This document shows positions 13,673 to 63,914 of a DNA stretch of 64,000 bases, piece after piece. Below the pieces are notes generated by a model. It was not told where the DNA came from. It made no database searches and saw nothing but the letters and a program-made list of their open reading frames with translations. Position 1 is the first letter of the stretch; every line of letters starts with the position of its first letter. A program made the position numbers and the translations under genes. Origin of the DNA: an uncultured archaeon (GTDB taxonomy: Archaea > Nanobdellota > Nanobdellia > Woesearchaeales > UBA9642); NCBI GenBank assembly GCA_963777125.1, contig CAVZPN010000048.1:1-64000 (forward strand). The letters run 5' to 3'.

Positions 13673-14068
13673 ATGTATATTCCAAAACGTTATGGTGAAA
13701 CTAGAGTTGACTCATGTCCATTCTGTGGAAGATCAGCATTAATTAAAAATTCTCAAGGTCTTGCAGTATGCCGAGATCATAAAGATAAGACTCTTGATAA
13801 TATGAAGTGTGCTTGTGGAGAATATTTACTCACACAGCAAGGTAAATTCGGAGTATTCTTTAATTGCTTTAAGTGTGGAAATATTAACTTAAAAAAAGCT
13901 CTTGAAATAAATTCTCAAATTATTGCAAAAACAATGAATGCGGAACCAAAAGTTGAAGTTAAAAAACAATCATCAACTTCTTCATCATCGACAAAAAAAG
14001 AATTTGTTCGAAAGGATATTGCCGTAAGAGATCAAGTAGTTAGAAGTGATGATCCTAGATATTTCTAA
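13673..14068 (+). CDS. Double zinc-ribbon protein
   Basis: CPFCG...C..H and C.CG...CFKCG Cys pairs. Confidence 0.45.
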   Translation: MYIPKRYGETRVDSCPFCGRSALIKNSQGLAVCRDHKDKTLDNMKCACGEYLLTQQGKFGVFFNCFKCGNINLKKALEINSQIIAKTMNAEPKVEVKKQSSTSSSSTKKEFVRKDIAVRDQVVRSDDPRYF

Positions 14069-25023: not shown

Positions 25024-25767
25024 ATGGATACAAAAATACTCGAAGAACTGGGACTCACACAATCAGAAATTAAAACATACATTACATTATTAGAGTTAGG
25101 CAGCAGTACTGCAGGATTAATTCTAGAAAAATCTAGTTTGCAAAATAGTGTTGTTCATCGTGCATTAAATAGTTTAATAGAAAAAGGATTAATAAATTAT
25201 GTTCTTGAAGGTAGAAGAAAAATATATCAAGCAACAAATCCTGAAAATTTCATTACATATATAGATAATAAAAAGCAAAGTTTCATGGAGATATTACCTG
25301 AACTAAAACAAAAACAAAACGTACTAAAAAAACAAGAAGCTGCAACAATATACAAAGGAAAAAGAGGCATTCAAGAAGTATATTATACACTGATTAATCA
25401 ACCAATAAAAGAAGTTAAAGAATATCTAACATTTGGAGGAGGAGAAGAATGTGCAAATTTTATGGGATTACATTGGTGGCTAAACATGCATACAAAACGT
25501 GTAGAAAATAAATTACCCTCAAGACAAGTATTTGATGAAAGCGTAAGACCAATAGGAAAAGATATAGAATCAAAAAAATTAACAAATATAAAATATTTAT
25601 CAAAAGAATTTGCTCAATTTCAAGAAACAGTTATAGTTGGAGATTATGTTGCTATAAACGTATTTACAGAAAATGCATATAGTTTTCTAATCAAAGATAA
25701 GAAAGTTGCGGACGGATATAGAAAATATTTTGAACTTCTATGGAAGATTAGCAAAACATATAAATAA
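25024..25767 (+). CDS. TrmB-family transcriptional regulator
   Basis: N-terminus ILEELGLTQSEIKTYITLLELGSSTAGLILEKSSL...VHRALNSLIEKGL typical TrmB wHTH. Confidence 0.6.
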   Translation: MDTKILEELGLTQSEIKTYITLLELGSSTAGLILEKSSLQNSVVHRALNSLIEKGLINYVLEGRRKIYQATNPENFITYIDNKKQSFMEILPELKQKQNVLKKQEAATIYKGKRGIQEVYYTLINQPIKEVKEYLTFGGGEECANFMGLHWWLNMHTKRVENKLPSRQVFDESVRPIGKDIESKKLTNIKYLSKEFAQFQETVIVGDYVAINVFTENAYSFLIKDKKVADGYRKYFELLWKISKTYK

Positions 25768-26599: not shown

Positions 26600-27607
26600 T
26601 TAATCAGATACCATCGATAACTTAGGAAATCCGGTATATCCCATATATTCATAATTCTTAATTATCCCTGCAAACTTAATCATAATTTCTTCTAATATTT
26701 GCAAAAGATGAGATAAATCTTTAACAACTATTTCGCATTCAAAATCTGCTCCACCAATTGATTTATTTATTTGATAAAAATATTTATGATGCTTAATATA
26801 TTCAAATAGTTCTCTGTTCTTAGCCATAGAATTCAATGTAAAATCTACACGATATCCTTGATAACCTAATTTAGGCAAGTTTATATCTATTTTATATCCA
26901 ACGATAACTTTATTTTGTTCGAGTAATCGTATTCTTCGACGTACAGTCTCTATACTAACACCAGATTGCTTTGAAATAGTTTGTAAACTTTGACGTACAT
27001 CAGATACATATATTTTTAAAATAGTTTCATCAACACCATCATGTTCAACATAACCTTTCTCACCATACACTCTTGAAATTAATTCTTTATCTTCATAAAA
27101 AAATCTTTTATTAAAATTATATATCGGCGCATATATAGCAATTTTATGTTCTGAAATATACTCTTTATATTTTAACATGAGTTCATTCCAAATTTTATGA
27201 AACTTTTCAATATATTCGTCTCGCTTTATTCCTATAAAAAATGCAAAATCCCATTTTCCATGAAGTTCTGTTGTAGTCCATATATTTTCATAATTACCAA
27301 TATCTTCATAGAATTGCTTTTTTAATAATGCTGTTACATTTTGCCATTTAATATAAATTCTAAAAGTTAAATATCCAAATTTAGACATATCAACAATAGC
27401 TGTGAAGTTTCTAATAATACCTTGATTTACTAAACGATTTATTCTAAAATTGACTGTTTCTTTTGAACGTTTTACTTTTTTTGCTAAAATACTCACAGGA
27501 ATAGATGAATCTTTTTCTAGTTCGAATAAAATCTTCTTGTCAAGCAAATCTAATAACATACTAAGATATTTGAGCTTGAATTTAAATATTTTCCTATTAG
27601 AAACCAT
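26600..27607 (-). CDS. Tandem (duplicated) Lrp/AsnC-like regulator
   Basis: Two HTH+RAM-like halves, each ending in a KFGY/KLGY motif. Confidence 0.5.
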   Translation of the reverse strand: MVSNRKIFKFKLKYLSMLLDLLDKKILFELEKDSSIPVSILAKKVKRSKETVNFRINRLVNQGIIRNFTAIVDMSKFGYLTFRIYIKWQNVTALLKKQFYEDIGNYENIWTTTELHGKWDFAFFIGIKRDEYIEKFHKIWNELMLKYKEYISEHKIAIYAPIYNFNKRFFYEDKELISRVYGEKGYVEHDGVDETILKIYVSDVRQSLQTISKQSGVSIETVRRRIRLLEQNKVIVGYKIDINLPKLGYQGYRVDFTLNSMAKNRELFEYIKHHKYFYQINKSIGGADFECEIVVKDLSHLLQILEEIMIKFAGIIKNYEYMGYTGFPKLSMVSD

Positions 27608-29224: not shown

Positions 29225-31705
29225 ATGGCTGAAGATAAGAACATAAAACGAGTAAAAAGTGCGAGTGCAGATGATGCGAACATCGTCATGCAGACACTTG
29301 AAGAAGAGATGAAGAAATCTTATCTAGATTATGCAATGTCGGTAATTATCGGAAGAGCACTACCTGACGTTAAAGATGGCTTAAAACCAGTTCATAGAAG
29401 AATATTATATGCTATGAATGAATTAAATAATACTTATAATAAACCGTACAAGAAATGTGCAAGAATCGTTGGAGAAGTACTTGGTAAGTATCATCCTCAT
29501 GGCGATAGTGCAGTATACGATTCTATGGTTAGAATGGCTCAAGAATTCTCACTTAGATACCCGTTAGTGCAAGGTCAAGGAAATTTTGGTTCTATTGATG
29601 GAGATTCAGCTGCAGCAATGAGATATACTGAAGCGCGATTAGCTAAAATCTCTGATGAAATGCTACAAGATATAGATAAAGAAACAGTAGAATTTACACC
29701 AAATTTCGATGGTACATTAAAAGAACCTGCTGTTATGCCGAGTAAATTTCCTAATTTATTTATTAACGGAAGTAGCGGTATTGCTGTAGGTATGGCAACA
29801 AATATTCCTCCACACAATATTACTGAAATGTGCAGCGCAGTAATAAGTGCAATTGATAATCCAGATATTAGTACAGAAGAATTATTACAAATAGTTAAAG
29901 GTCCTGATTTTCCAACTGGCGCAGAAATTATTGGTAGAAGCGGAATAATTAGCGCATATAATACTGGTCGAGGAAGCGTTAGAATACGATCAGTAATTGA
30001 AATGGAAGAGAAAAAGGATAGAAAAAGATTAATTGTAAAAGAAATACCTTATCAAGTAAATAAAGCTCAATTAGTAGAAAACATTGCTGAATTAGTTAAA
30101 GAGAAAAAAATTCCTGAAATTAGCGATCTAAGAGATGAATCAGATAGAGATGGAGTTAGAATAGTAATTGAATTAAAAAGAGATGCAAATCCTGAAATAA
30201 TAAAAAATATGTTATATAAATATTCTAGATTAGAAGATAATTTTGGAATAAATGTTGTTGCAATTGTAAACAATGAACCTAAATTATTATCATTAAAATT
30301 ATATTTAAGACACTATATCGAGCATAGAATAGATGTTGTACGTAAGAGATGCATCTTTGATTTAAGAAAAGCTGAAGAAAGAGCACACATTCTTGAAGGA
30401 TTAAAATTAGCATTACATAATATTGACGATATTATTAATATTATCAGAAATAGCAAGAGTGCTGAAGATGATGCTAAAAAATCATTAATGGATAAATACA
30501 AATTTAGTGAAGCTCAAACTAATGCTATTTTAGAAATGAAAATAAGAAGACTTGCAATGCTTGAGCAAGAAAAAATAAATAACGAATATAGTGAATTAAA
30601 AGTGCAAATAACAGACTTGAAAGACATATTAAATTCCGAAACTAGAGTTAGAACAATAATCAAAACAGAAATGGATGAAATAATTCATACATATGGTAAA
30701 AATGATTCTCGTAAAACAAAAATTGTAGATGCTCCAGATGATGATAATGATTTTGAAATGGAAGATTTAATACCGAATGAAACTGTTGTAATAACAATGT
30801 CTCATTCGGGATATGTTAAAAGATTACCTATTGAAACATATAAAGTTCAAAATAGAGGCGGAAAAGGAGTAATGGCAACAGACTTAAAAGATGAAGATTA
30901 CATTGAAAGATTATTCATCGCAAAAACTCACTCTTACCTACTAATAATTACAAATAAAGGACAATTATATTGGCTTAAAGCGTATAAATTACCTGATGCA
31001 TCAAGACAATCTATGGGTAAAGCAATAGTTAATCTACTCGAATTAGAAGTTGATGAGAAAGTTAATGCAATAATACCAGTTGACGAATTTAATGATAAAC
31101 ATTACATTGTAATGGCAACCAAGAATGGAACTATTAAGAAAACAAATTTAATAGAATTCTCAAATCCAAGAAAAGGCGGAATTGCAGCAATAAATTTAGA
31201 TACTGAACTTAAAGATCAATTAGTAAATGTTGTAATGACTGATGGCACAAAAGACATAATGCTTGCAACAAAAAAAGGACTTGCATCAAGATTTAACGAA
31301 GAAGATGTAAGAGCAACAGGAAGAACAAGTCAAGGAGTTCGTGGAATAAGACTTGCAAAAGATGATTCTGTTGTAGGAATGATAATTGCTGAAGATAGTC
31401 ATCAAGTATTAACACTTACAGAAAATGGTTACGGTAAAAAAACAGATACAACAGAATATAGACAAATTAATAGAGGAGGAAAAGGTGTGAGAAACATACT
31501 TTGCTCTGAAAGAAACGGTAATGTTTCGGTAATATTATCTGTTACAGATACTGATGATGTATTATTCATATCAAAGAAAGGAATAATTATTAGAACGCCA
31601 TGCGATCAAATATCAACTGTTGGAAGAAGCACTCAAGGAGTAAGATTAATGAAACTTGGCGCAAGCGATAAAGCAATTAATATGACAAAGATATTGAAGG
31701 AATAA
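29225..31705 (+). CDS. gyrA: DNA gyrase subunit A
   Basis: [32 protein letters not shown] and active-site region; 826 aa; repeated beta-pinwheel C-terminal blades. Confidence 0.9.
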
Positions 31706-32211
31706 TGAAACTAAATCTCACAAAAGAAGAAATAAAAGAAACAGTATTACATTTTGGAGAAACAACTATATTACGAAATAATTATGAAAATAATATCCCT
31801 AATGTAGTAGTCGAAATATTCTTCGAAAAATACAACCATATAAAAATATATGGTCCGAGTTTAGAAACTTTCGGACAAATTTCTACTCACACATTTAAAA
31901 ACTTTTTAGAAAGAAACGGAACAATAGAAGCATTACTTACAGAAGATTTAGAATCTAATAAAAATTCACTTATTTCCAAATTCTATCTAGAATATCAAAA
32001 TAATATACAAATAAAATTCATTCAAGATAACAAATTAAAAATTTCAGAAGAAGATGAATATAGATCATATCTAATAATAGGAGATGAAAAAGGCTTTATT
32101 TTTAAACAACATCATAAAAAAGATTCTTCTAAAAGTTATATTTTTGATTCTTTAAACAACGCAAAACAAACCAATACATTAAATGAAATATTTAATCGTT
32201 TAAAAAATTAG
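31705..32211 (+). CDS. Hypothetical protein, paralogue 1, translationally coupled to gyrA
   Basis: Start ATG overlaps the gyrA stop by 1 nt (TAATG); about 40% identical to the next ORF. Confidence 0.5.
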   Translation: MKLNLTKEEIKETVLHFGETTILRNNYENNIPNVVVEIFFEKYNHIKIYGPSLETFGQISTHTFKNFLERNGTIEALLTEDLESNKNSLISKFYLEYQNNIQIKFIQDNKLKISEEDEYRSYLIIGDEKGFIFKQHHKKDSSKSYIFDSLNNAKQTNTLNEIFNRLKN

Positions 32212-32328: not shown

Positions 32329-32940
32329 ATGACTATGATATCTAAAGAAGACTTCGCAAGAAAAACAATAACAGAATGGGCAAGATTAAAAGAACCATGT
32401 ACGTATAAACCAACTTGCGAACACAATGTGCCAAGCATATTCTTAGAAACCTTTTTTAATAATTATAATAATATAAAATTATACGGTTCGAGCCTAGAAG
32501 CTTTTGGAAATCTTCCAACTCAAACATTTAAAGACTTTTTAGATAGAAATGGAACACTTGAATTACTACTTACAGAAAAATTAGAACCGCATTCTATTGA
32601 AACTCCTTCACTTATTTCTAAATTTTTAACAAAATATGAGAAAAACATAACTGTAAACCATGTAGATTTACAAATAATTAAAAATAAAATAGTAGAAAAA
32701 CAGAATCAGAAAAAAAGCAGTTTAATTGAAGAAATAAAAGCACTTGATACACCTAAATTTGAAGAAGAACCAGAAGAAGACTATGAGGAGTATTTTATAA
32801 CCGCAGATGATTCAGCATTTATTTTCAAAGAACATCATAAATATAACCCTAAAAGTTACTTTTTTTATTCTTTTAACAATATAGAAGAAGCTGCTAAATT
32901 AAATAACGCATTTGAGTATTTTAAAACTTTGAAAAATTAA
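32329..32940 (+). CDS. Hypothetical protein, paralogue 2 of the gyrA-coupled gene
   Basis: Shared blocks F(F/L)E.(F/Y)N.IK.YG.SLE.FG ... F.(D/N)FL.RNGT.E.LLTE.LE and C-terminal IFK.HHK...KSY.F.S.NN. Confidence 0.5.
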   Translation: MTMISKEDFARKTITEWARLKEPCTYKPTCEHNVPSIFLETFFNNYNNIKLYGSSLEAFGNLPTQTFKDFLDRNGTLELLLTEKLEPHSIETPSLISKFLTKYEKNITVNHVDLQIIKNKIVEKQNQKKSSLIEEIKALDTPKFEEEPEEDYEEYFITADDSAFIFKEHHKYNPKSYFFYSFNNIEEAAKLNNAFEYFKTLKN

Positions 32941-38152: not shown

Positions 38153-39133
38153 ATGTATCAAAAAAATAAAGAAAGAAAAGATATTTCTACAATTAACCTT
38201 GATTTAAAGGATAAAAAGTTATTACTAGAATTATTTAGCACAGAAAAAAAGTCGAAAATAGAATTAAGCAAAAAGATACTAATTTCAAAAGAAATGCTAA
38301 GTTATAGAGTTAAAAGATTAAAATCAGAAAACATATTACAAAATATTTCTCCAATAATAGATTATTCAAAACTAGGATACCATATTTATAGACTGCAAAT
38401 AAGATATAATTCTATAACACTAGAAAAAAAACAAGAAATCATAAAGTACCTAGAACAAATACCTGAATTAAGCTGGCTTGTGGAACTTGCAGGACCATGG
38501 GATATTGCAATAGGATTTATGATTAGAAATACTGAAGATTTTGAAAAAATATACTCTGATATTATGAAAAATTATGGTAGCATTATACAAAACAAATTAT
38601 TTACAATTATAACAAGTATAGAACACTTATCGCCAAATTATATCTGCCCAGGAACTAGACAAAAACTTGTAACAGGAAAAAACTACGACAACATAATACT
38701 TGAAGAAAATGCAAAAAAGATTATACGAGAATTAAATAAAGATGGTCAATTAACACTAAGCGAACTTGCAAAAAGATTAAAAGTATCGATAAGTACAATA
38801 AAATATCACTTAGAATATTTAGAATTAAAACAAATAATTATAGGATATAAACCAAGCATAAACGCAGCAAAATTAGGTTTTGAACATTTTAAAGTAATGT
38901 TAGAATTAGAGGATATAAGTAAAAAAAATACTGCAAAGGAAATATTAGAACAAAACAATAACGTTACCTACATTACAGAATCATTAGGAAAATACGATTT
39001 AGAATTTGAAGCAGAATTCACAAAAATGGATGAAGTATTAAGACTTATAAAACAATTAAAAGATCAAATAGAATTAAGAAATAGCGAAATAATATTTTCA
39101 AATAAAGAATTAATAGTGAGAGACATAATATGA
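38153..39133 (+). CDS. Tandem (duplicated) Lrp/AsnC-like regulator, paralogue of 26600-27607
   Basis: Two HTH+RAM halves (..YSKLGY, ..AAKLGF). Confidence 0.5.
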   Translation: MYQKNKERKDISTINLDLKDKKLLLELFSTEKKSKIELSKKILISKEMLSYRVKRLKSENILQNISPIIDYSKLGYHIYRLQIRYNSITLEKKQEIIKYLEQIPELSWLVELAGPWDIAIGFMIRNTEDFEKIYSDIMKNYGSIIQNKLFTIITSIEHLSPNYICPGTRQKLVTGKNYDNIILEENAKKIIRELNKDGQLTLSELAKRLKVSISTIKYHLEYLELKQIIIGYKPSINAAKLGFEHFKVMLELEDISKKNTAKEILEQNNNVTYITESLGKYDLEFEAEFTKMDEVLRLIKQLKDQIELRNSEIIFSNKELIVRDII

Positions 39134-43648: not shown

Positions 43649-44044
43649 TTATCCAGTGATTAATTGTTCAAAACTTAATCCTTTTCTTTTAGCAATAGGA
43701 ATATCTATAGAATAACTTTTTTCAGTAATTTCTAAATCTTCAATATTTAAAAAAAACCAGTCCATCCTATCAAACTTTACAGCAATCCAAGCTTCTGCGC
43801 CAAATTTATTTGCAAAAAAAACTAATTCATCAACTTCTTTTTTAGTCAAATATTTTTTAGTATCACAAGTTGACTTACATTCAATTGCAAGTCTTCGAAG
43901 ATTATTGCCTGCAAGAATATCAGGACTTGGATATTTCATACTACCAGATCCTGCACTTCGAATAGCAACCCACCCATTATCATTAAACTTATGGATTAAA
44001 TCCCTCTCAGCATTTGATCCTTTGGCTTTTTTGTTTAGTAACAT
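43649..44044 (-). CDS. hjc: Holliday junction resolvase Hjc
   Basis: KGSNAERDLIHKF...PDILAG...LAIECKST catalytic E-D-E-K arrangement; 131 aa. Confidence 0.8.
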   Translation of the reverse strand: MLLNKKAKGSNAERDLIHKFNDNGWVAIRSAGSGSMKYPSPDILAGNNLRRLAIECKSTCDTKKYLTKKEVDELVFFANKFGAEAWIAVKFDRMDWFFLNIEDLEITEKSYSIDIPIAKRKGLSFEQLITG

Positions 44045-45429: not shown

Positions 45430-46617
45430 TTGAATAGTTTGAATAATAGTCAAAATAATAATAATTTGCATCATAAAATAATACATAATTTGGTTCTAAA
45501 CCACAAATCATATGCTAACAAGAATAATATTCAATCTAAAAAACCTGCTCTAAATTACAATAATTTAATAAAACAACATTTAGGAATTTTAAAAGAATTA
45601 CAATATAATTCAGGATTATTTGCAGCCTCGAGTAAATCTGTGAATACTGGATATGATAAATCTTGGCTTCGAGATAATTTTTATGAATGCCTTGCATTTG
45701 AAGTAATCGGTGATTGGGATACTGTTGAAAAAACCTATGATGCAGTTCTTCAAATATTTCTCAAACACGAATATAAAATTGATTACGCAATACAATCAAA
45801 ACCCGAGCATAAACATGAATATATACATGCAAGATTTCATCCTGAAACATTTGACGAATTCTGGGAAGATTGGGGTAACAAACAAAACGATAGTATAGGC
45901 GCAATACTCTTTAGAATTGGAGAACTTGAACATCATCATCAAAGATATATCTTAAAAAATGAAAATTATATAAGAATAGTAAATAAACTAGTTCAATACT
46001 TAGAAGCCATACGTTATTGGTGTGATGAGGATAATGGTATGTGGGAAGAAAATGAAGAAGTTCATGCATCAAGTGTTGGAGCATGTGTTGCTGGCCTAAA
46101 AAGCATTAAAAGATTAACAAAAATAGAAGTACCTGATGAATTAATACGCAAGGGAGAAGAAACATTAAACAAATTATTACCTCGAGAATCTAAAACTAAA
46201 TTTGTAGATTTATCTTTATTATCATTAATATATCCTTACAACATTGTTACACCAAAACAAAGAGCAGAAATACTCGAAAATGTTGAATATCTATTACTTC
46301 GAGAAAGAGGAGTAATAAGATACAAAAATGACCATTACTACAACAAAAATCCTGACGGATATAGTGAAGAAGCAGAATGGACATTTGGTCTTAGTTGGCT
46401 TGCAATAATATATGAAAAATTAGGAAATATTCCTAAAGCTAAAGAATTTATAGACAGAGCATTAAAAGCTACAAGCAACAAAGGTGTTCCTGAGTTATAT
46501 TTTAGTAATTCTAAAAAACATAATGAGAATAACCCTTTAGGCTGGAGCGAATCATTATTCATAGTAGCATTACATGATATGAATAAAAAATGTATACATC
46601 AAAATATTAAGAGTTGA
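45430..46617 (+). CDS. GH15-like (glucoamylase/trehalase-type alpha/alpha-6 barrel) glycoside hydrolase
   Basis: YDKSWLRDNFY (W-x-RD) and GMWEEN (general-acid WEE motif as in glucoamylases). Confidence 0.5.
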   Translation: MNSLNNSQNNNNLHHKIIHNLVLNHKSYANKNNIQSKKPALNYNNLIKQHLGILKELQYNSGLFAASSKSVNTGYDKSWLRDNFYECLAFEVIGDWDTVEKTYDAVLQIFLKHEYKIDYAIQSKPEHKHEYIHARFHPETFDEFWEDWGNKQNDSIGAILFRIGELEHHHQRYILKNENYIRIVNKLVQYLEAIRYWCDEDNGMWEENEEVHASSVGACVAGLKSIKRLTKIEVPDELIRKGEETLNKLLPRESKTKFVDLSLLSLIYPYNIVTPKQRAEILENVEYLLLRERGVIRYKNDHYYNKNPDGYSEEAEWTFGLSWLAIIYEKLGNIPKAKEFIDRALKATSNKGVPELYFSNSKKHNENNPLGWSESLFIVALHDMNKKCIHQNIKS

Positions 46618-46621
46618 AAAT

Positions 46622-47953
46622 TTGAATAATAAAAATACTAAAACATCTAAGGCGTGGGTCATTTCTGTTGATATGGGATATGGTCATCAAAGGGCAGCAT
46701 ATCCTCTCAAAGATATTGCTTATGAAAGAATAATAACAGCCAATAGTGATGAAATTATATCTGAAAAAGAACGTAATATCTGGGAACAAACAAGAATATT
46801 ATATGAAGCCGTATCGAGATTAAAAACCATTCCAGTTATAGGACAACAATTATTTAACATTTATGATCAAATACAAAAAATATCTCCATTTTTTCCATTT
46901 AGAGATTTATCAAAACCTAATTTTAGTACACTAAGAGTTAAAAAAATCATTGATGAGGGATTTGGTAAAAGTCTTGTAGAGTATACCTCTAAACAAAATA
47001 TTCCGATAATTTCTACATATCCAATATCTGCATTAATGTTTGACTACAATAATAAAAAAGTATATCTTGTTGTTACAGATACAGACATTAATAGAGTGTG
47101 GGTCTCAAATAATCCTAAAACAAGCAATATAACATATTTTGCACCATGTAAACACGTTGTTTTAAGACTTAAACAATACGGAGTATCTGATGAAAAGATA
47201 ATTGAAACAGGTTTTCCGTTACCTAAAGAAAACATCGGTAAGAATGACGAAATAGTAAAAAAAGATCTTATGGCAAGATTAGTGAATCTTGATCCTGAAG
47301 GAATATTTTTTGAAAAATATAAAGGAATGGTTATTGATAAACTGAATTTAAAAAAGAATCAGAAATTTGATTTGGAATCATTAAAAAAATTTAAAACACA
47401 TGACCTCACTATAACATACGCTATTGGTGGTGCTGGTGCACAAAAAGAATTAGCAATTGAAATTATTAAATCATTAAGAGAAAAAATAGAATCCAAAAAA
47501 TTAATTATAAATATAGTAGTCGGAATAAAATTAGAATTAAAAATGTATTTTGAAACAGAATTAAAAAATATAGGATTAAAAGATAATATCGGAATAAATA
47601 TCAACATAATATTTGCATTCGACAAAAAAACTATTTTTGAAAATACTAATAAAATTTTACGAACCACAGATATATTATGGACAAAACCTAGCGAAATGTC
47701 ATTTTACACCGCTCTTGGAATACCAATAATTATTGCCCCACCAATTGGAGCTCATGAACACTTTAATAAAGAATGGTTACAACACATCGGTAGCGGATTT
47801 GTTCAAGAAGATCCTTTATTTACTAAAGATTGGATTTATTATTGGATACAAGATGGAAGACTTGCTGATGCTGCAATACAAGGATTTATAGATGCTCCAA
47901 GGCATGGAACATATAATATTGAACAATACTTGTCTAAAAAAGGTAATATTTAA
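46622..47953 (+). CDS. GT28-family glycosyltransferase (MGDG-synthase-like)
   Basis: ISVDMGYGHQRAAYPL (G-x-G-H-x-x-AA N-terminal signature); 443 aa; immediately downstream of the GH15-like gene. Confidence 0.5.
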   Translation: MNNKNTKTSKAWVISVDMGYGHQRAAYPLKDIAYERIITANSDEIISEKERNIWEQTRILYEAVSRLKTIPVIGQQLFNIYDQIQKISPFFPFRDLSKPNFSTLRVKKIIDEGFGKSLVEYTSKQNIPIISTYPISALMFDYNNKKVYLVVTDTDINRVWVSNNPKTSNITYFAPCKHVVLRLKQYGVSDEKIIETGFPLPKENIGKNDEIVKKDLMARLVNLDPEGIFFEKYKGMVIDKLNLKKNQKFDLESLKKFKTHDLTITYAIGGAGAQKELAIEIIKSLREKIESKKLIINIVVGIKLELKMYFETELKNIGLKDNIGININIIFAFDKKTIFENTNKILRTTDILWTKPSEMSFYTALGIPIIIAPPIGAHEHFNKEWLQHIGSGFVQEDPLFTKDWIYYWIQDGRLADAAIQGFIDAPRHGTYNIEQYLSKKGNI

Positions 47954-48000: not shown

Positions 48001-48687
48001 ATGATAAAAAAATCACATAAAAAAAGAACATCGAATAAGAAAAATAGCGTAACACGAAAATTAGATGAAGTTCTAAAAGTTGAAAATAAGTTATTACAAG
48101 TTGAGAAAAACATATCAAGAAAAGAAGATAATTTAGCAAAAGAAGAGAAAAAAATAGAATTAGAGGAATCTAGAATAGAAACTGATGAAAACAATATGAA
48201 AGATGTTTCTAGCATTCTTAAAAAAGAAGAATCCGACTTAGAAAGACTTGAAAAAATAGAAACTGAAATAAAAAATGAAGTTGGGGAACATCCTCTTGCT
48301 AAAGTAACATTAAAAGATATCACTAAAGGATTAATTGGTGCATTTATTGGACTTTCTGTTCATTATACTTTTACTTATGGTGTTGAAATTGCCCATAGTT
48401 TAACAATGACACGAGCCACAATAATGTTCCCATTAACGTTTTTAGTAGGATTATTATTTATATATGCAACTGGCTTTAGAAAAGTTGAAGATAAAAGAAT
48501 ATTAATATATATGCCTCTAAGAGTAATAGTATTATTTATGTGTTCATTAGCAATGTCAATACTAGTACTATACTTCTTTTATCCATTATTCGGACATAAT
48601 TTTGAAGAATCATATAAAATGGTAGCAGCAGTAATGCTTTCAGCAATAGTTGGTGCATGTACGGCAGATTTACTGGGAAAGGAATAA
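48001..48687 (+). CDS. Coiled-coil protein with C-terminal multi-TM domain
   Basis: Charged N-terminal half, 3-4 hydrophobic helices. Confidence 0.4.
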   Translation: MIKKSHKKRTSNKKNSVTRKLDEVLKVENKLLQVEKNISRKEDNLAKEEKKIELEESRIETDENNMKDVSSILKKEESDLERLEKIETEIKNEVGEHPLAKVTLKDITKGLIGAFIGLSVHYTFTYGVEIAHSLTMTRATIMFPLTFLVGLLFIYATGFRKVEDKRILIYMPLRVIVLFMCSLAMSILVLYFFYPLFGHNFEESYKMVAAVMLSAIVGACTADLLGKE

Positions 48688-49160
48688 AAATGTATATAAT
48701 AAATATTGATAAAGAAATACAAAAAGATAAGAGAATAGAAGAAATATTTAGAAATATTGAATCAGAATTAATTAACGAAGAAGTTACAGACTCAATACTT
48801 CAAAGCAAAAAAACATTATTAACATGTTTAAAAAATATTGGACTTCTAAGAGACATGTATACTGCGCAACAACAAGAATTTTATAATTATAGACCGGTTT
48901 TTATCAAAGAAGGAGCTAAAAAAGAATCAGAAAGATTATATGGTGACTTAACTAAAATGATTATAGATATTAATGAATATGAAAAAATATTGCATTATAT
49001 AATCAACTTAATTGAAGATTCAAAAAGTAAACTTGAAGATCAGAAAGCTAAAATAAAAAAAGGATTAGATGATATAAGTAAAGCTTATGAAGCATTTATC
49101 GAAACAAATAAAGATGCAATAATACAGCTAGAACAAATAAAAGTTCTATCTAAACAATAA
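48657..49160 (+). CDS. Hypothetical coiled-coil protein
   Basis: Intact ORF. Confidence 0.35.
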   Translation: MYGRFTGKGIKMYIINIDKEIQKDKRIEEIFRNIESELINEEVTDSILQSKKTLLTCLKNIGLLRDMYTAQQQEFYNYRPVFIKEGAKKESERLYGDLTKMIIDINEYEKILHYIINLIEDSKSKLEDQKAKIKKGLDDISKAYEAFIETNKDAIIQLEQIKVLSKQ

Positions 49161-49165
49161 GTCAA

Positions 49166-50206
49166 ATGAACCTTAATGATTATTCTTACGAACTTCCAGA
49201 AAAATTAATAGCACAAAAGCCACATTTTCCAAAAGATGAATGCAAATTATTAATTCTTGGTAACAAAATAGAACACACTAAATTCTATAATACTATTGAT
49301 CATTTAAAAAAGGGAGATATATTGGTATTAAATAATACTAAAGTTAGTCATGCTAAAATATATGGTGAAAAAGAAACGGGAAGTAATGCAGAAGTAATAC
49401 TGATAAAAAATATTAAAAATAATATTTATGAAGCAAAAATTAAAACAAAAAATCCCCTCATAGGAACTAAAATTATTATCAATACTAAAAATAAACACCA
49501 TAAAATTAATACAAGCAACAATAACCATAATAAGGAGTACATAGAAATTATTGACAAAAAGAATATTGATACCTTTATTGTGAAATTGAGTTCTAAAGAG
49601 ATTTTATCTTTGGCGATACTACCGACGCCACCATATATTAAAAGAAAATTAAAGGATTCCGAATATCAAACAATATTTTCTAAAAAAGTAGGATCATTAG
49701 CGGCACCTACTGCAGGTCTTCATTTTACAAAAAAGTTATTAGAAAAAATCAAACGACTAGGAGTAGAAATTGTATATATAACATTACATGTAAGTTATGG
49801 TACTTTTAAAAATATTGATGATATTGATAATTATGTTATGGATCCTGAATACTACGAAATAACAAAAGATTCAGCAAATAAAATAAATAATCGCAAAGGT
49901 CGATTAATTGTATGCGGCACAACAACCCTAAAAGCACTTGAAACAGCATCAGAAAAAGGTAAAATTATTTCAGGAAATAACTGGTCAACATTATTTATTT
50001 ACCCACCATACAAATTTAAATCAAAAACAGACATACTAATAACAAATTTTCACTTACCAAAATCTACATTATTACTTTTAACATGTGCTTTTGGAGAAAA
50101 GGAAAGGATACTAAACGCATACAATATAGCTGTTAAAAAGAGATATAAATTCTATAGCCTAGGAGACGCTATGATGATATATTTTAATCCTTCCATTAAT
50201 GCATGA
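49166..50206 (+). CDS. queA: S-adenosylmethionine:tRNA ribosyltransferase-isomerase QueA
   Basis: YSYELPEKLIAQKP, AAPTAGLHFT, ITLHVSYGTF, CGTTTLKALE, NFHLPKSTL, YSLGDAMMIY; essentially collinear with E. coli QueA. Confidence 0.85.
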   Translation: MNLNDYSYELPEKLIAQKPHFPKDECKLLILGNKIEHTKFYNTIDHLKKGDILVLNNTKVSHAKIYGEKETGSNAEVILIKNIKNNIYEAKIKTKNPLIGTKIIINTKNKHHKINTSNNNHNKEYIEIIDKKNIDTFIVKLSSKEILSLAILPTPPYIKRKLKDSEYQTIFSKKVGSLAAPTAGLHFTKKLLEKIKRLGVEIVYITLHVSYGTFKNIDDIDNYVMDPEYYEITKDSANKINNRKGRLIVCGTTTLKALETASEKGKIISGNNWSTLFIYPPYKFKSKTDILITNFHLPKSTLLLLTCAFGEKERILNAYNIAVKKRYKFYSLGDAMMIYFNPSINA

Positions 50207-51465: not shown

Positions 51466-52689
51466 TTATTCTTTGGCGTATGCTAAGAAATGCATTGTAT
51501 CATAAACTTTTAATGCACGCATTTTATCAAGAGTTTTTCTATCCATCAAAGGCACTAATTCAGACTCGATAATATCAATAGTATGATTGGATACTAATTC
51601 ATCTTTAGAATGATATTTTTGTATAACTTGCTTAATAGTGTTTCTAACGCGAGTCGCAGAAATTGGCAAACAATCGGATTTTGCAGTCGAACGAACTACG
51701 GAGAGTAGGTTATAATCTCCTTCGCCAAATAATTGTTTTGTCCAATCATTTCCAGCAATTACTGAATTAAATGTAGGACATAAAGATACTGTCTTTGGAG
51801 CAAAACAAGCATTAGCATCAATATCTTTTATTGGAATAGTATAAAATTGGTCTGCACCAATACCATTATTAATCAAAGCATGCCTGATAATATCTATACG
51901 TTGACCCGCTGTAAATGGATCTGAATCAGTATGATCTTGCTGTGCTGAACCTATTGCAATAACTATTTGATCTGAATTTTGTAATCCTAATCGGATATTA
52001 GAAAAATGTCCATTATTATCTTCATAAACTCCTGTAAATGGTTGAAATCCACCTAGAAATAGTGTTCGTTTAGCAATATTTTTTGTAATATTAAAATCTG
52101 AATTTTTACGGTTATATATAGCATTTATTCTATTAGATAAATTACTTTCAAACAGATAATCGATAGCACTTTGAGGAATATATATTTTTAATTCATCCAT
52201 AGCAGCACTATTACCCTTCAAATATTGTGCAAGTAAATTAAAATATTCTTTTTCTGGCTTTTGTTCATCTATGGTTTGTATATTATAATGATAATTTTTC
52301 TTAAATGATTCAAACATTGTGGCATTCTTAAAATTTCTAGTATATACGGTGTGCCATTTTGGCGTCAACATTAAAATTTCCGATACCCATCTAGTTGCAT
52401 CAGGAGCGTTTTCTATAGGTATAAGAATATATTTATTAGGAGATATTCCTTCTGATTTTAATACATGATCAGTTAATTCTATTCTTTCTCCGGCAGTCAT
52501 TATTTCTCCTATTTCATGAGAGTATCCTGCATTACCTATTCCTATGACTACTTCATCATTTTCTTCCAAAATTAATTTTATTAAATCAACATCTTTTTTT
52601 GTTGTTGGTTGAAATTTTTCTATTATAAATCCTCGTTTAGGATTTAAATTATAATTATTTTTTATGTAATTAGAATCCATATGTATCAC
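51466..52689 (-). CDS. Tandem nucleotidyltransferase (NadM/NMNAT-like) domain protein, HxGH motifs degenerate
   Basis: Two repeats RGFIIEKFQP...VVIGIGNA...TAGERIEL and TLFLGGFQPF...IVIAIGSA...TAGQRIDI. Confidence 0.5.
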   Translation of the reverse strand: MIHMDSNYIKNNYNLNPKRGFIIEKFQPTTKKDVDLIKLILEENDEVVIGIGNAGYSHEIGEIMTAGERIELTDHVLKSEGISPNKYILIPIENAPDATRWVSEILMLTPKWHTVYTRNFKNATMFESFKKNYHYNIQTIDEQKPEKEYFNLLAQYLKGNSAAMDELKIYIPQSAIDYLFESNLSNRINAIYNRKNSDFNITKNIAKRTLFLGGFQPFTGVYEDNNGHFSNIRLGLQNSDQIVIAIGSAQQDHTDSDPFTAGQRIDIIRHALINNGIGADQFYTIPIKDIDANACFAPKTVSLCPTFNSVIAGNDWTKQLFGEGDYNLLSVVRSTAKSDCLPISATRVRNTIKQVIQKYHSKDELVSNHTIDIIESELVPLMDRKTLDKMRALKVYDTMHFLAYAKE

Positions 52690-52695
52690 GTCAAT

Positions 52696-53385
52696 TTACA
52701 TTAATTTAACATATCCTGCTTTTAATTCAAATATTTCTCCACGCATCATCATATCGCTAATAAAATCTTCACAATTAGAAATACCAGATAGTTTCAATAC
52801 ATCCTCAATATTTGCACCATTACCATTATCTAATGCTTTTATTAATTGAGCAATTTTATCTTTAGAACCTAAACTACCATGAGTTTCAACAATTTCCGGC
52901 TCAAGAGCCATTTTCTTTTCTATTTTTGGAAAATCTTCTGAAGTTCTAACTTTTTGAATTAAAGATAATTCTTTTTTACGATATGCAACCCATGACGGAG
53001 ATATTTTTTTAATTAATTCAATTGTTAAATATATTTGGCTATTAAAATCTCTAGGTCTTCCAACCACTAATACAACATCACCTACAACAATAGGTAACAT
53101 TTGTTCTGTTTTATCAAATATTCTACCACTAATTTGTCCTGTACCATCATCTAATACAACGCTAGTATCATCTTTTGAAACAACAACAGCCATAAGATTA
53201 ACTCTCGAAAAATCACCGTATTCAGTCATTAAATAACTAGATTCCCATCCTTGTTTTTTAATAAATACTCCATTAGTCAAAGTAATTATACTACATTTGT
53301 ATGCGGTTTGTCTTTTGATTTCTTCTGCCATTTTAATCAACTTAAATATTTTAATCAAATTATATTCTACTAATAAATCCTGCAC
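52696..53385 (-). CDS. OB-fold plus C-terminal winged-helix protein (RPA32/Stn1-like architecture), immediately downstream of mcm
   Basis: VNLMAVVVSK..VVLDDGTGQISGRIF..GDVVLVVGRP OB-like strands; overlaps the mcm 3' end. Confidence 0.4.
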   Translation of the reverse strand: MQDLLVEYNLIKIFKLIKMAEEIKRQTAYKCSIITLTNGVFIKKQGWESSYLMTEYGDFSRVNLMAVVVSKDDTSVVLDDGTGQISGRIFDKTEQMLPIVVGDVVLVVGRPRDFNSQIYLTIELIKKISPSWVAYRKKELSLIQKVRTSEDFPKIEKKMALEPEIVETHGSLGSKDKIAQLIKALDNGNGANIEDVLKLSGISNCEDFISDMMMRGEIFELKAGYVKLM

Positions 53386-55375
53386 GAGGAGTAAATATAA
53401 CTCCTTCTTTTTTCAACACATCAATTATGTCTTCAGCCTTTTCTGGATCAAGACCTCTCTCTTTAACTTTTAATAATATATCATCAACTGGGATTTGTTT
53501 ACCTATCTGTCCTTCAAGCTCCTTAATTATATCTTTAACAACAGAAATATTGCTTCTTTGAGATGCAGAAACTCCTGTTGTTATTCTATCAATATCTATT
53601 TTACCAGTCTCAGGATCTAAACCAATTTGCATTAAACAAAAGTGGACTAATTCTATTGCACGTCTTGCATCACTTTTCAATACTTTTGTTGCAAGTCTAA
53701 CTCGAGCGCTAGCTTCACTAAGTCTAATTAATGCTTCAAGCTGTCTTGCGGAAATTGGAATTGCTTTAAATGCGCCTTCATCATCCCCAGTACTTCTCAT
53801 TTTTACATAATATTCTTTTATTTCTTCTAATGCTTCATCAGTTAATACGGGATTAATATTTTGTTTTGCATAAGCAATATATTTTTTAATAAAATCGGTT
53901 CGTAATTCTGCTTCTCCACCACTAGATTTTTGATGTAATTTTAATATAAAATTTGCAGTTCTCTCATCTTTAATTTTATTTGGAAGATCTCTTATCGGAA
54001 ATATTAAATCAAATCTATTAATTAATGTTGATGGCAATTCTATTTGTTTTGCAAGCATTTCATAAGGATCGAATCGTCCAAATTTAGGATTTGCAGCAGC
54101 AAGTACCGTTGTTTCTGCTCTTAATGTTGCAGAAATATTTGCTTTGTTAATACTAATAGTCTGCTGTTCAAGAGCTTCGTGCATTGCGCTAGTATCTTCT
54201 TTAGTCATCTTATCTAATTCATCTATGCAACATATTCCTCTATTAGTTAGAACTAATGCTCCAGCTTCTAGCGCATATCCTCTTAAGAAATCATCTTTAA
54301 CAACTGTTGCAGTTAAACCCGCTGCACTTGCACCTTTTCCTGATACGAATCTCGATTTTGGTGCAACAATACTAATTCTTTTAAGCATTTGACTTTTACC
54401 TGATCCTGGATCACCAATTAATAATACGTGAATATCTCCTCTATTAATTGAACCATCATCTTTAACTTTTCGAACGCCACCGAATAATTGTAAAACTAAT
54501 GCTTCTTTTACTTTGTCGTGACCATAAATAGATGGAGCAATACTTCCTGTTAATTTTTTATATATTTTTGGATCTTCAGATAAATCTCTTATTTCTTTAA
54601 TATCTTCAGCTTTAATATTGAGTTCACTAAAATCTTCAGCAACAGATTCAGTATGATTAGCTTCAATCATTAAATCAAATCTAGTTAATTTTCCGCCATC
54701 TTTTGCAAGTATTGGAACTTCTTTTAATATTCCTGTAATAATGTTTTTACTACCAGGATTTGTTTTCTTTTCAGATAATGGACTTACTAAATCTCCTTTT
54801 AAGAAAATATCTAATCTTTTTGGTTGCTCAGATCCTTCAATATCTTCAGGCGCTTCTTCTAAAACAATTTTCTGAGCATCAATCATTTCTTTATTCATTA
54901 ATCTAAATCTTCCTTTACGACCGCAACCACATCTTGTCGGTTCATGAAATTTTGTATCAAGTTGTAGTACTGTCATAGTATTACCACATGCAGGACATTC
55001 AAATCGCGCGCTCGTAACTTGAGGTCTTACAGGAGATTTTTGTCTTATTATACCTGAAAGCTGTATTAATTTAGATAAATGTATTGCTCTAATATCTCTA
55101 ATCATAATTTCTTGCGATTTTGGTAAATTCTTAAATCTTAATTTAAAATTTTTAACATCAGGAAAATCAAATTGTTCAATAGCGATTTCGCAAGCTCTCA
55201 AAACATCTTCTGGAGTTTCTAAAAGTTGTTCAGCTAATTCAATATTAAATCTGCTTAAATCACTAAAATTAATTATTAAGAATTTTTCACCTTTAGACAC
55301 TGCGGCACGTAATTGTTCACCATAGACTACTTCAAAGAATTCGTGGAACTTTTCTATCTGCTCCGTAATTTCCAT
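53360..55375 (-). CDS. mcm: MCM replicative helicase
   Basis: C4 zinc finger (CPACG..CGCG), Walker A GDPGSGKSQ, Walker B CIDELDKM, arginine finger SARQ, C-terminal wH. Confidence 0.9.
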   Translation of the reverse strand: MEITEQIEKFHEFFEVVYGEQLRAAVSKGEKFLIINFSDLSRFNIELAEQLLETPEDVLRACEIAIEQFDFPDVKNFKLRFKNLPKSQEIMIRDIRAIHLSKLIQLSGIIRQKSPVRPQVTSARFECPACGNTMTVLQLDTKFHEPTRCGCGRKGRFRLMNKEMIDAQKIVLEEAPEDIEGSEQPKRLDIFLKGDLVSPLSEKKTNPGSKNIITGILKEVPILAKDGGKLTRFDLMIEANHTESVAEDFSELNIKAEDIKEIRDLSEDPKIYKKLTGSIAPSIYGHDKVKEALVLQLFGGVRKVKDDGSINRGDIHVLLIGDPGSGKSQMLKRISIVAPKSRFVSGKGASAAGLTATVVKDDFLRGYALEAGALVLTNRGICCIDELDKMTKEDTSAMHEALEQQTISINKANISATLRAETTVLAAANPKFGRFDPYEMLAKQIELPSTLINRFDLIFPIRDLPNKIKDERTANFILKLHQKSSGGEAELRTDFIKKYIAYAKQNINPVLTDEALEEIKEYYVKMRSTGDDEGAFKAIPISARQLEALIRLSEASARVRLATKVLKSDARRAIELVHFCLMQIGLDPETGKIDIDRITTGVSASQRSNISVVKDIIKELEGQIGKQIPVDDILLKVKERGLDPEKAEDIIDVLKKEGVIFTPRAGFISRI

Positions 55376-55743: not shown

Positions 55744-56331
55744 TTATTGTAATTTTTTTAATATTACAATTAATTTATCTAAAGCTTGTATTGCTTCTGC
55801 TTCACTCTTAGTTCCAGTACATACAACCTTACCATTACTAAATAATAAGAATGTAGCTTTTGCTTCAATTAACTTATATACTAAGCCTGGAAATTGTTCT
55901 GGTTCGTATTCAGTATTTGGAAGTTTCATTGCTAAACTGTTTAAGTTTAATGCCATACCAATACTTCCTGATGCAACCATATTTTGAACAGTAATCTTTG
56001 GCTTTATTGTTATTTTAATTCCAATCTTTTGTAAGCTTTCAATTATTTTTTGTATTGATTCTTCAACTTTTTGTAAACTTCGCGCGCCAGTACATACAAT
56101 TTTTCCTGAACTAAATATTAACGCAGATGTTTTTGGTTCTTTTATTCTTATAACTAAACCTGGAAATTGTTCTGGATTATATTCAGTATTACTTAATGTG
56201 GCAGCCATCTTCTCTAATGGAATGGTATGTTCAAGTGATGAACTTACAACAATATTTACAATCTGTAAACTTTTTTCAGTATTAGTTTCAACAACACTAC
56301 TCTTTGATTTCTTTACGCTTTTCTTAGCCAT
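55744..56331 (-). CDS. tbp: TATA-box binding protein
   Basis: Two direct repeats (...EYNPEQFPGLVIRI...SGKIVCTGARS / ...EYEPEQFPGLVYKL...NGKVVCTGTKS). Confidence 0.9.
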   Translation of the reverse strand: MAKKSVKKSKSSVVETNTEKSLQIVNIVVSSSLEHTIPLEKMAATLSNTEYNPEQFPGLVIRIKEPKTSALIFSSGKIVCTGARSLQKVEESIQKIIESLQKIGIKITIKPKITVQNMVASGSIGMALNLNSLAMKLPNTEYEPEQFPGLVYKLIEAKATFLLFSNGKVVCTGTKSEAEAIQALDKLIVILKKLQ

Positions 56332-59076: not shown

Positions 59077-59907
59077 TTATTTCATCAATTCTTGTACTTC
59101 TTTATTTGTTAAGAATCGCCACTTACCAAGTTTTACATCCATTCTTAGATTTCCGATTTTAGTTCTTGATAACTCAGTAACATAATAACCTAATTTAAAG
59201 AATAGTCTTTTAACAATCCACTTTTTACCTTCATGAATTGTAACTTCTACTTGATCTTTATGATAAACCTTAACTTTAGCTTTGATTTTACCATCCTGTA
59301 AAAATACTCCTTGTTCTATTTTTGCAATATCTTCAGAACTAATTTTCTTATCCAATTTTACAAAATATGTTTTTTCTTTCTCATATCTTGGATGTGTTAT
59401 CTTATTAGAAAATTCACCATCATTAGTCAATAATAATAAACCAGTAGTATTTTTATCAAGTCTTCCAACAGGAAATATCCTCTCATTAATAGGTATTAAA
59501 TCAAGTACACTTTTGTCAACAAGCTTACTTAATGTTGCTTCGTAATGTTTTGGTTTATTTAACATAATATATACGGGAGCACTTTTTTCAATTAAAGTAG
59601 TATTTGCATAAATCTCGTCATGATCAAGATCAGCTTTATCGCCAAGCTTAATTAATTTACCATTAACTCGAACCTTTCCAAATGCGATTAATTCTTCTGC
59701 CTTACGTCTACTACAATAGCCACTAGCAGCAATTATTTTTTGTACTCTTTCTTCCATAAAGACTGTTACTACGATTCCTTTTATAAACATTTTTAAAATA
59801 CTCTTGATTAATAACATTATGAGTAACACTCCTACAATATCACGGACTACAGATACTAATTTAAATACTAAATCCGACAACATATTCGATGTAGTTATTC
59901 CAAGCAA
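59077..59907 (-). CDS. RsuA/RluB-family pseudouridine synthase with S4 domain; true start probably the internal Met (MEERVQKII) near 59754
   Basis: S4 motif (IAASGYCSRRKAEELI), catalytic FPVGRLDKNTTGLLLLTNDG; upstream 51 codons are hydrophobic and low-complexity. Confidence 0.7.
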   Translation of the reverse strand: MLGITTSNMLSDLVFKLVSVVRDIVGVLLIMLLIKSILKMFIKGIVVTVFMEERVQKIIAASGYCSRRKAEELIAFGKVRVNGKLIKLGDKADLDHDEIYANTTLIEKSAPVYIMLNKPKHYEATLSKLVDKSVLDLIPINERIFPVGRLDKNTTGLLLLTNDGEFSNKITHPRYEKEKTYFVKLDKKISSEDIAKIEQGVFLQDGKIKAKVKVYHKDQVEVTIHEGKKWIVKRLFFKLGYYVTELSRTKIGNLRMDVKLGKWRFLTNKEVQELMK

Positions 59908-62258: not shown

Positions 62259-63914
62259 TTATTCTTTAATATTCTTCTCTTCATAGTCAACTTTTTTAGA
62301 AGCAGTTTTTGATATTTTAGGATTGCTAGTCTTTTCATCTTTTTCTTTATTTTTCACAGGCTTTTTATCTAAATTATTGGCCATCCATGCACGTTTTTTA
62401 GCGTATTGAACAGGATTTTTAATACTTTTACATAATCCATCAGGATTACAAAATTGTGTATCAACCATATATCCTTTATTATCACAATTTGGAGCCATCA
62501 TCTTATCTTTATTATGACTTGCTTGTTGTTTATAGTATCTTAATTGACCACGAATATATGTTTCTCTTAATTGATCTGGCTTATTTTTAGTATTCCATTT
62601 TAATGCATACTCTTCTATCTGATCATATTCCCAATTAGCACTACTAAGAAAATTAATTAGTACAAGTAATGCTCTCTTTTTCCCATCATCAAGCCCTTGA
62701 GAAATCTTTTTTATACAAGGCGGGAAAAATTCTTCTGGAATCGGCGTAGTATCGAGTGCAATATTTTGTGAAGACATCTCTTTTTTTTCTTTAATCCACA
62801 TTTTTTGCATATCAGTTTTATGTTTTTGCTGTGTTTCTGACTTAAAATCAAATGCTTTTTGAAATAAATTTTCTGCTTCACCAGATTTAGCTTCAGTTCT
62901 TTCTAAAAATTTGTAAGGTTTAAATTTATTAACATCAGCTTCTTCCTTTTCAAATTTTAATATATGTTTAATATCAAATGGCATTGAAACTAAACCCGTT
63001 TTTTCGTGTAATGAATAAGGCATCCTAAATAAATGTCTTGAACTAATAAGAACAGTATCAACATTAACAATTGAAGATAAATCGAGTTCACTTTTAGTTT
63101 TATTTGAACCGCACTCACATAAAGCTTTTTTATTAGAATATTTATCCATAATCTTTTTACATTTAGGACAACTAATAAATTTCTTATCAACATCTTTTAA
63201 TTGATACTCACAATTCGGACAAACATACTCCACAAATCCGTCGTCAGATTTTAGATTAATTTTTTGCTTACAACTATCACATCGTAATAAAGTTAAATCT
63301 TTTTCAGTTTTGCCTGTTTCTTTTAACATCTTATCAAATTTCACATCAACCTTACCAAACCTAATAAGATTTTTTGTTAAATCGACATATATTAAATTCT
63401 CAGTAATATAATGTAATAAATATTCAGCAATTTTGCGTGGTCCTTCTGGAAAAATATTCTTTACATCAACGCCTAGAACTTTCTGCGGAAATGCTTCAAA
63501 TGGTACAGCAATATGAAAGCCTTTCCCACCAGAAAACTTGACGGTTACACAATTTATTCCATGATCTTTTAAAGCTTTAATAAAAACGTAAGTTGTTAGT
63601 TTACTAAAATTCCAATAAGGACAATCAATATCAAGAATCAAATCCCAGCCAGATCTTAATTCATCAAGTTCATTTCTTCTCAAATTTGCACTAATACTTA
63701 AAGGATTAGTCCATGTTTCTTCAGAACAATGTAAACTAGTACATCCTCTTTTAGCAGACTCTAAAATATCATTTTCATAAACTAAAACATCGGGTCTTTT
63801 ACCAAAACCATCACCAAATCTTACACCAATCTCTTTACCTTGAGCATGTTCTAGAATTAATTTTTGAACATCTTTTCTTTTATAATAAGACAATGATTCT
63901 GAAAGTGTAAGCAT
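62259..63914 (-). CDS. priS: Archaeo-eukaryotic primase catalytic subunit (PriS) with zinc ribbons and a long helical C-terminal extension
   Basis: WDLILDIDCP (D-x-D) and KFSGGKGFHIAVPFEAF (SGxRG-H) AEP motifs; several C-x-x-C pairs; 551 aa. Confidence 0.6.
   Translation of the reverse strand: MLTLSESLSYYKRKDVQKLILEHAQGKEIGVRFGDGFGKRPDVLVYENDILESAKRGCTSLHCSEETWTNPLSISANLRRNELDELRSGWDLILDIDCPYWNFSKLTTYVFIKALKDHGINCVTVKFSGGKGFHIAVPFEAFPQKVLGVDVKNIFPEGPRKIAEYLLHYITENLIYVDLTKNLIRFGKVDVKFDKMLKETGKTEKDLTLLRCDSCKQKINLKSDDGFVEYVCPNCEYQLKDVDKKFISCPKCKKIMDKYSNKKALCECGSNKTKSELDLSSIVNVDTVLISSRHLFRMPYSLHEKTGLVSMPFDIKHILKFEKEEADVNKFKPYKFLERTEAKSGEAENLFQKAFDFKSETQQKHKTDMQKMWIKEKKEMSSQNIALDTTPIPEEFFPPCIKKISQGLDDGKKRALLVLINFLSSANWEYDQIEEYALKWNTKNKPDQLRETYIRGQLRYYKQQASHNKDKMMAPNCDNKGYMVDTQFCNPDGLCKSIKNPVQYAKKRAWMANNLDKKPVKNKEKDEKTSNPKISKTASKKVDYEEKNIKE

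Follow-up and report, generated by a model that had tools for sequence, protein, structure and literature searches.

In textbook accounts, queuosine is found in Bacteria and Eukarya, whereas Archaea carry archaeosine. Archaeosine is a modification of position 15 of tRNA, not of position 34; the premise of a preliminary description of the DNA studied here, that archaea place it at G34 as well as at G15, is to be narrowed to position 15 only. The archaeosine pathway (ArcTGT/TgtA, ArcS) resembles the queuosine pathway in its related 7-deazaguanine precursors and in a transglycosylase of a homologous superfamily, and to our knowledge archaeosine synthesis has no QueA step. Here we analysed the queA gene carried by a 64,000-nucleotide stretch from an uncultured archaeon of the Woesearchaeales (positions 1 to 64,000 of contig CAVZPN010000048.1, assembly GCA_963777125.1; hereafter the window). 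From comparisons of gene content and sequence we read its product as a canonical QueA that probably acts in a salvage-fed, bacterial-type queuosine pathway resident in part of DPANN (Woesearchaeota/Nanoarchaeota).

Castelle et al. (2021; PMC8204110) described complete or partial bacterial queuosine pathways in 34 genomes of archaea, of which 12 are DPANN and which include some Euryarchaeota. They listed co-localised QueA, QueH-like and Tgt genes and noted that these depart from the division of queuosine and archaeosine between the domains. The known queuosine-precursor transporters comprise QPTR/YhhQ (COG1738), the QrtT/QueT ECF S-components and members of PF07168, PF03006 and PF07690 (PMC11130926); in that study, physical clustering led to new transporters. 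NCBI already annotates close relatives of the window protein as QueA in Woesearchaeota metagenome-assembled genomes (MAGs). Bacterial-type QueA in DPANN has been known since 2021, and the window is a further example. The modest refinements added here are that its queA belongs to a sizeable Woesearchaeal clade in which it appears old and vertically inherited, and that it stands beside a DUF2391 membrane protein instead of tgt or queH. As in the DPANN sets of Castelle et al., a bacterial-type QueA occurs in a Woesearchaeota-like genome, and we recovered the co-localised form in three other contigs (L087, L088 and L089), whereas the window QueA, although on an archaeal contig, has no adjacent QueH or Tgt and follows a DUF2391-type protein and a small helical protein. 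The main text of PMC8204110 makes no mention of the DUF2391-QueA arrangement, and a term search of two of its supplementary files gave no match.

The gene itself has the following properties:
49166..50206, + strand: queA, ATG start, 346 residues; tRNA preQ1(34) S-adenosylmethionine (SAM) ribosyltransferase-isomerase by PF02547, NF001140 and TIGR00113

The preliminary description had called this open reading frame (ORF) collinear with bacterial QueA, and profile searches and alignments bear this out. The motifs AAPTAGLHF, NFHLPKSTL and YSLGDAMMIY are all present, and Pfam PF02547 (Queuosine_synth) matched at E=5.5e-98 with 328.5 bits (cut-off 25), residues 3-338 of the protein spanning the entire profile (positions 1-322 of 322). 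Both NCBIfam QueA equivalogs scored above their cut-offs (NF001140, 338 bits versus 324; TIGR00113, 324 bits versus 267.45). At the sequence level, residues 13-346 of Thermotoga maritima QueA (1VKY_A) align to residues 1-338 of the window protein (E=2.5e-72) and residues 10-345 of Bacillus subtilis QueA (1YY3_A) to residues 6-338 (E=2e-70), the window protein being like these enzymes in length, collinearity and conserved motifs. It keeps 55 of the 61 alignment columns that are invariant in 19 named bacterial QueAs. The six departures (K23, H62, K64, A150, S210 and K256) are mostly conservative, and all are widespread in the archaeal clade to which the protein belongs (see below): relative to bacterial QueA, R64K and R256K are fixed in this clade (41 of 41 members), and A150, S210 and H62 are common. 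The window protein further differs by an N/K-rich insertion of 16 residues (107-122) that is private to it among the aligned sequences, as expected for a genome of 28% GC. Retention of 55 of 61 invariant residues, with exceptions that are lineage-wide, across a divergence of 50-77% identity points to sustained purifying selection. The ORF thus encodes an intact, full-length QueA, predicted to be canonical and functional.

We sought relatives of the window QueA among 5.8 billion proteins and found more than 100 at 44-74% identity, the named ones being mostly Woesearchaeota, Nanoarchaeota or 'archaeon'. The window protein differs from bacterial QueA in its archaeal host and in its distance: relatives in an archaeal context reach 74% identity to it, versus 46-48% over trimmed alignment columns for the closest named bacterial QueAs among the GTDB matches listed (Clostridia, Bacilli and others). 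The QueA-anchored GTDB and JGI matches listed were mostly bacterial or distant loci; they were used as outgroups and also gave contigs L091, L092 and L093. In neighbour-joining trees (100 bootstraps, three runs, 19 bacterial references) the window QueA fell within a clade of 41-43 sequences that contains no bacterial reference and was supported at 87, 95 and 89 in the three runs. A wider set of 88-90 DPANN-type QueAs stood apart from the bacterial references with 29-52% support, and the QueAs of Methanosarcinales/Methanoperedens, Hydrothermarchaeota and Thermoplasmatota grouped on the bacterial side of the tree. The clade comprises eight loci with readable context (the window, L083, L084, L085, L086, L091, L092 and L171, from at least six samples or assemblies), and all eight lie on archaeal contigs with conserved gene order. 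This nesting and the archaeal synteny at every readable locus fit vertical inheritance of queA within the Woesearchaeal clade, and the gene is neither a recent nor an isolated acquisition. The special lateral acquisition suggested in the preliminary description is at odds with both, nesting in a vertically inherited archaeal clade being the very outcome that it had named as refuting the idea. An ancient transfer of a bacterial-type queA into DPANN is likely, and the neighbour-joining tree resolves neither a donor nor a single transfer.

In the pathway that we favour, the cell would import a precursor base, most likely preQ1, from its surroundings or from a host, and a bacterial-type Tgt would place this base at G34. 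QueA would then move the ribosyl moiety of SAM onto the aminomethyl group that preQ1 carries at the wobble position (34) of the tRNAs for Asp, Asn, His and Tyr and isomerise it, yielding epoxyqueuosine-tRNA, and QueH would reduce epoxyqueuosine to queuosine. Within the clade, QueH (PF02677) is encoded within about 0.5 kb of QueA in the basal members L092 and L171, where QueA is followed by a CAE-type cytidine deaminase and then by QueH, with the membrane and small proteins upstream; by homology, a consumer of the predicted QueA product exists within the clade of the window. The intervening cytidine deaminase (dCMP_cyt_deam_1; 2790-3206 in L092, 4110-4538 in L171) shows 76% mutual identity between the two contigs.

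More distant DPANN QueAs (45-48% identity), on contigs with archaeal genes, have further partners beside them. The Nanoarchaeota MAG contig L087 carries an operon of overlapping QueH, Tgt and QueA genes; in L088, QueH adjoins a Tgt-QueA pair, and Vut_1/YhhQ lies 6 kb away beside an A-type ATPase operon; and in L089 the order is Vut_1/YhhQ, DUF5652, QueA and QueH, near Topo VI and Hef. Tgt also adjoins QueA in the more distant DPANN loci L099/L100 and L101, as does QueH in L093 and L096, and bacterial-type Tgt is common among Woesearchaeota and Nanoarchaeota MAGs. The Tgts at the DPANN loci differ from those of the archaeosine pathway, as they scored as G34-type on TIGR00430 (494 and 436 bits versus a cut-off of 307) and fell below the cut-off of the archaeosine TgtA model (163 and 160 bits versus 350). 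The Vut_1 proteins of L088 and L089 pass TIGR00697, the 'queuosine precursor transporter' equivalog. No QueC, QueD, QueE or QueF Pfam labels occurred in the window or in any QueA neighbourhood that was read, which fits salvage of a precursor base. Of the two explanations offered in the preliminary description, salvage of queuosine intermediates and repurposing on another substrate, salvage is therefore the better supported, with distant DPANN loci pairing Tgt, QueA, QueH and YhhQ and with no genes for de novo preQ synthesis nearby. In the window lineage, the long vertically inherited queA would have parted from tgt and queH, which would lie elsewhere in the genome, and we infer that this genome holds a Tgt, a QueH and a precursor transporter, that its precursor is salvaged and that its tRNAs carry queuosine.

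In L087, the QueH-Tgt-QueA operon is flanked by two class-II tRNA-synt_2 genes (6348-7748 and 12689-13990, both on the - strand), members of the Asp/Asn/Lys-type family, to which the enzymes charging two of the four tRNA species with queuosine belong.

Several observations weigh against a complete queuosine pathway in the window lineage. As the preliminary description had stated, partner genes are not visible in the window: neither a Pfam scan of about 60 ORFs nor tblastn (E<=1e-3) with Tgt, QueH and Vut_1 queries detected tgt, queH or Vut_1/YhhQ in the window and the overlapping Logan contig L082 (about 69 kb together), and, queA apart, no queG, queT or other queuosine or archaeosine gene was found in the 64-kb window and the extension of about 5 kb. 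Tgt was not found in any of the eight clade loci, and comparison of contig sizes, composition and accession series linked not one of 120 Tgt relatives to a clade contig or assembly. QueH is absent within 10 kb on either side of QueA in the six crown-group loci (the window, L083-L086 and L091). The window contains no tRNA with a GUN anticodon, its sole RNA gene being tRNA-Leu(CAA), and thus no QueA substrate tRNA to inspect. The deep nodes of the QueA tree have 29-52% support with a small bacterial sample (19 references), and a literature search found no experimental work on queuosine in any archaeon.

The most AT-biased Tgt relative (P0140) was considered as the Tgt of the clade and ruled out; it originates in a different sample, and the regulator beside it shares only 26-27% identity with the paralogues in the window.

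The distribution of QueH within the clade also raises the idea that the crown group has lost this gene, so that epoxyqueuosine (oQ) would be the final wobble modification while Tgt and QueA remained functional. This truncated route would account for QueH adjoining QueA only in the basal L092 and L171 and being missing around the six crown-group genes; however, a neighbourhood of 20 kb is uninformative on the rest of a genome of about 1 Mb, and in many organisms QueH is encoded away from QueA, so we regard the truncation as unlikely.

Bacterial-type Tgt, QueA and QueH in DPANN blur the queuosine/archaeosine domain split. They also suggest that these symbionts, whose genomes are reduced, tune NAU/NAC decoding by scavenging preQ1 or a related base as a micronutrient of bacterial origin. 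Such scavenging would hint at the partners DPANN live with. Castelle et al. (2021) made this point.

The queA gene of the window belongs to a conserved block, the other members of which include:
43649..44044, - strand: Hjc, archaeal Holliday-junction resolvase (Pfam PF01870, E=5.3e-28), a conserved archaeal marker that bounds the synteny block upstream
45430-46617, + strand: GH15-family glycoside hydrolase (Pfam), co-oriented with queA
46622-47953, + strand: DUF6938 protein (Pfam), tightly spaced after GH15 and co-oriented
48001..48687, + strand: DUF2391-type membrane protein, 228 residues (Pfam PF09622, 31.8 bits versus a cut-off of 22)
48690..49160, + strand: small all-helical protein, 156 residues, its gene lying 2 nucleotides after that of the membrane protein and 5 nucleotides before queA

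The order Hjc, PRC, GH15, (DUF6938), DUF2391-type membrane protein, small protein and QueA is found in the window, L083, L084, L086 and L091, and L085 has the same order with the small protein absent. The Hjc copies at the equivalent position in L083-L086 and L091 are 73-86% identical. GH15 is followed by DUF6938 again in L084 and L085 and is also present in L083, L086 and L091; we claim no functional link of GH15 or DUF6938 to QueA. Archaeal FEN1, Trm5/TYW2 and PAN are encoded near QueA in L083, L085 and L086, and L084 is syntenic with the window downstream of queA too (SpoIIM, OB-fold protein, MCM, TBP, PmbA/TldD, NUDIX and pseudouridine synthase). In L171, QueA is separated from the pair of membrane and small proteins by an M24 peptidase.

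The DUF2391-type protein is upstream of QueA in all eight clade loci, across three neighbourhood arrangements. Its PF09622 match is confined to the C-terminal half of that profile (positions 139-273 of 275), and NCBI names its relatives 'DUF2391 family protein'. An AlphaFold2 (AF2) model (predicted local distance difference test, pLDDT, 82.6) shows a long K/E-rich N-terminal helix and a bundle of four transmembrane (TM) helices. Identity is 36-71% among the copies of the window and L083-L086 when aligned together, and the copies in L091, L092 and L171 are 51-64% identical to the window protein. The subfamily is small, with 89 detectable homologues, Woesearchaeota where named, of which 11 lie on contigs equal in size to contigs with a clade QueA. 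The small protein gave no Pfam or NCBIfam match; its positional orthologues in L083, L084, L086, L091, L092 and L171 are 18-28% identical, indicating fast evolution, and its single-sequence AF2 model, a helical hairpin (pLDDT 76), is uninformative.

In bacterial-like loci sampled, queA-tgt adjacency is the rule, which does not hold in the window. With QueA uncoupled from tgt/queH and fixed beside the clade-restricted DUF2391-type protein, mostly with the small helical protein in between, the membrane protein could conceivably serve in uptake or handling of a queuosine precursor, replacing a YhhQ-type transporter; in L089, Vut_1/YhhQ occupies the same position next to QueA (membrane protein, small protein, QueA). 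We hold this role doubtful, and the pairing could equally be explained as inherited gene order. The protein differs from the known precursor transporters in having no detectable Vut_1 homology, only four TM helices and no fold match. Specifically, hhalign gave a Vut_1 probability of 11.6% and BLASTP aligned only a TM stretch of 55 residues, the ECF_trnsprt Pfam profile scored 20.2 bits (below its cut-off of 30.7), and the AF2 model matched no fold in the PDB. Assignment as a YhhQ/QPTR (Vut_1) or ECF S-component transporter was thus rejected on sequence, profile and fold, and none of these comparisons revealed similarity to any known transporter or enzyme.

A subgroup of 197-residue DUF2391-type proteins (P0316-P0328), about 51% identical in the TM domain, is encoded on contigs of 84-336 kb. 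None of these contigs matches in size any contig of the QueA relatives found, which speaks against an obligate DUF2391-QueA link and suggests that the pairing is not universal.

The same neighbourhood bears on whether QueA has been orphaned in this subclade, that is, whether it lacks a bacterial-type Tgt and has been turned to another substrate or to a new route with the DUF2391-type and small helical proteins, a repurposing that the preliminary description had entertained. The separation of queA from tgt/queH, the DUF2391-type neighbour at eight of eight loci in three arrangements, the 11 co-occurrences with clade QueAs on equal-sized contigs and the want of any Tgt assignable to the clade would suit such a change of function. 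However, the catalytic core shows exactly the conservation seen in bacterial QueAs, with 55 of the 61 invariant residues kept, and QueH, which makes sense only after canonical QueA chemistry, adjoins QueA in two clade members; moreover, the membrane protein resembles no known transporter or enzyme, its adjacency may be inherited order, and the 197-residue subgroup lies on long contigs with no matching QueA. Repurposing is therefore without support from the sequence, and we consider it improbable compared with the canonical role in a salvage-fed pathway.

The remaining landmarks of the window, the pseudouridine synthase apart, place queA in an archaeal genome, in agreement with the archaeal replication and transcription context given in the preliminary description:
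4501-5238, - strand: PCNA, an archaeal marker
25024-25767: TrmB regulator, archaeal context
51466-52689, - strand: archaeal-type nicotinamide mononucleotide (NMN) adenylyltransferase, NMNAT (NF002243, 198.6 bits versus 127)
53360-55375, - strand: MCM with an archaeal winged-helix domain
55744-56331, - strand: TBP
59077-59907, - strand: RsuA/RluF/RluB-family pseudouridine synthase (PseudoU_synth_2 and S4; TIGR00093, 124.8 bits versus a cut-off of 109.3)
62259-63914, - strand: fused PriS/PriL primase

The window further encodes thymidine kinase, RNase J, ScpB and GyrA. The overlapping contig L082 adds about 5 kb upstream of the window with CDP-alcohol phosphatidyltransferases and the CDP-archaeol synthase CarS, the latter about 1 kb beyond the window start, and no que genes. 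The host genome is archaeal and Woesearchaeota-like.

A QueA typical of bacteria in such a genome could in principle reflect bacterial DNA that was mis-assembled or mis-binned, or a very recent bacterial transfer, and one relative (P0012) is indeed labelled Alphaproteobacteria in NCBI. The contig of P0012 (L086; DASPMU010000108.1, GCA_035626895.1), however, is itself archaeal, as it encodes Hjc, FEN1, TYW2 and PAN; the Alphaproteobacteria label is therefore a mistake of binning or labelling. In the window, GC content is 0.25-0.32 all along, queA and its flanking genes are separated by gaps of only 2-5 nucleotides, and a separate Logan assembly (L001, run ERR12037365) shows the same stretch from Hjc to QueA, junctions included; the contig is therefore not chimeric, as the preliminary description had expected from uniform flanks. 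Equivalent archaeal synteny recurs in seven other contigs from different samples, and bacterial QueAs are far more distant from the window protein than are its archaeal-context relatives (46-48% versus up to 74% identity). These findings refute an artefact or recent transfer, to which we would assign next to no probability.

Some neighbouring genes have features of their own. The pseudouridine synthase, pointed out in the preliminary description as a second bacterial-type RNA-modification gene, is a genuine RsuA/RluB-type protein by its domains and TIGR00093 score. With the TTG start as listed, the protein gains about 50 hydrophobic residues; the true start is probably an internal Met near residue 51 ('MEERVQKII'). 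The gene is syntenic in the Woesearchaeota relative L084 (19614-20241). The primase ORF (551 residues) joins a small-subunit domain (residues 100-314) and a large-subunit domain (residues 343-479). The NMNAT protein (407 residues) contains two nucleotidyltransferase halves, at residues 22-105 and at residues 208-375, of which the second matches the archaeal NMN adenylyltransferase model NF002243, pointing to an internal duplication or a fusion.

Two adjacent paralogues lie directly after gyrA (31705-32211 and 32329-32940, both on the + strand); neither has a Pfam match. The two have a stretch in common, which is NHIKIYGPSLETFGQISTHTFKNFLERNGT in the protein of 31705-32211 and NNIKLYGSSLEAFGNLPTQTFKDFLDRNGT in that of 32329-32940. 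Finally, regulators of about 330 residues with two AsnC-type helix-turn-helix (HTH) domains are encoded at 26600-27607 (- strand) and 38153-39133 (+ strand) in the window, at 2044-3039 in L090 and at 20285-20996 in L089. These two-HTH regulators of DPANN contigs are only 26-27% identical to one another, and the L090 copy adjoins a Tgt.

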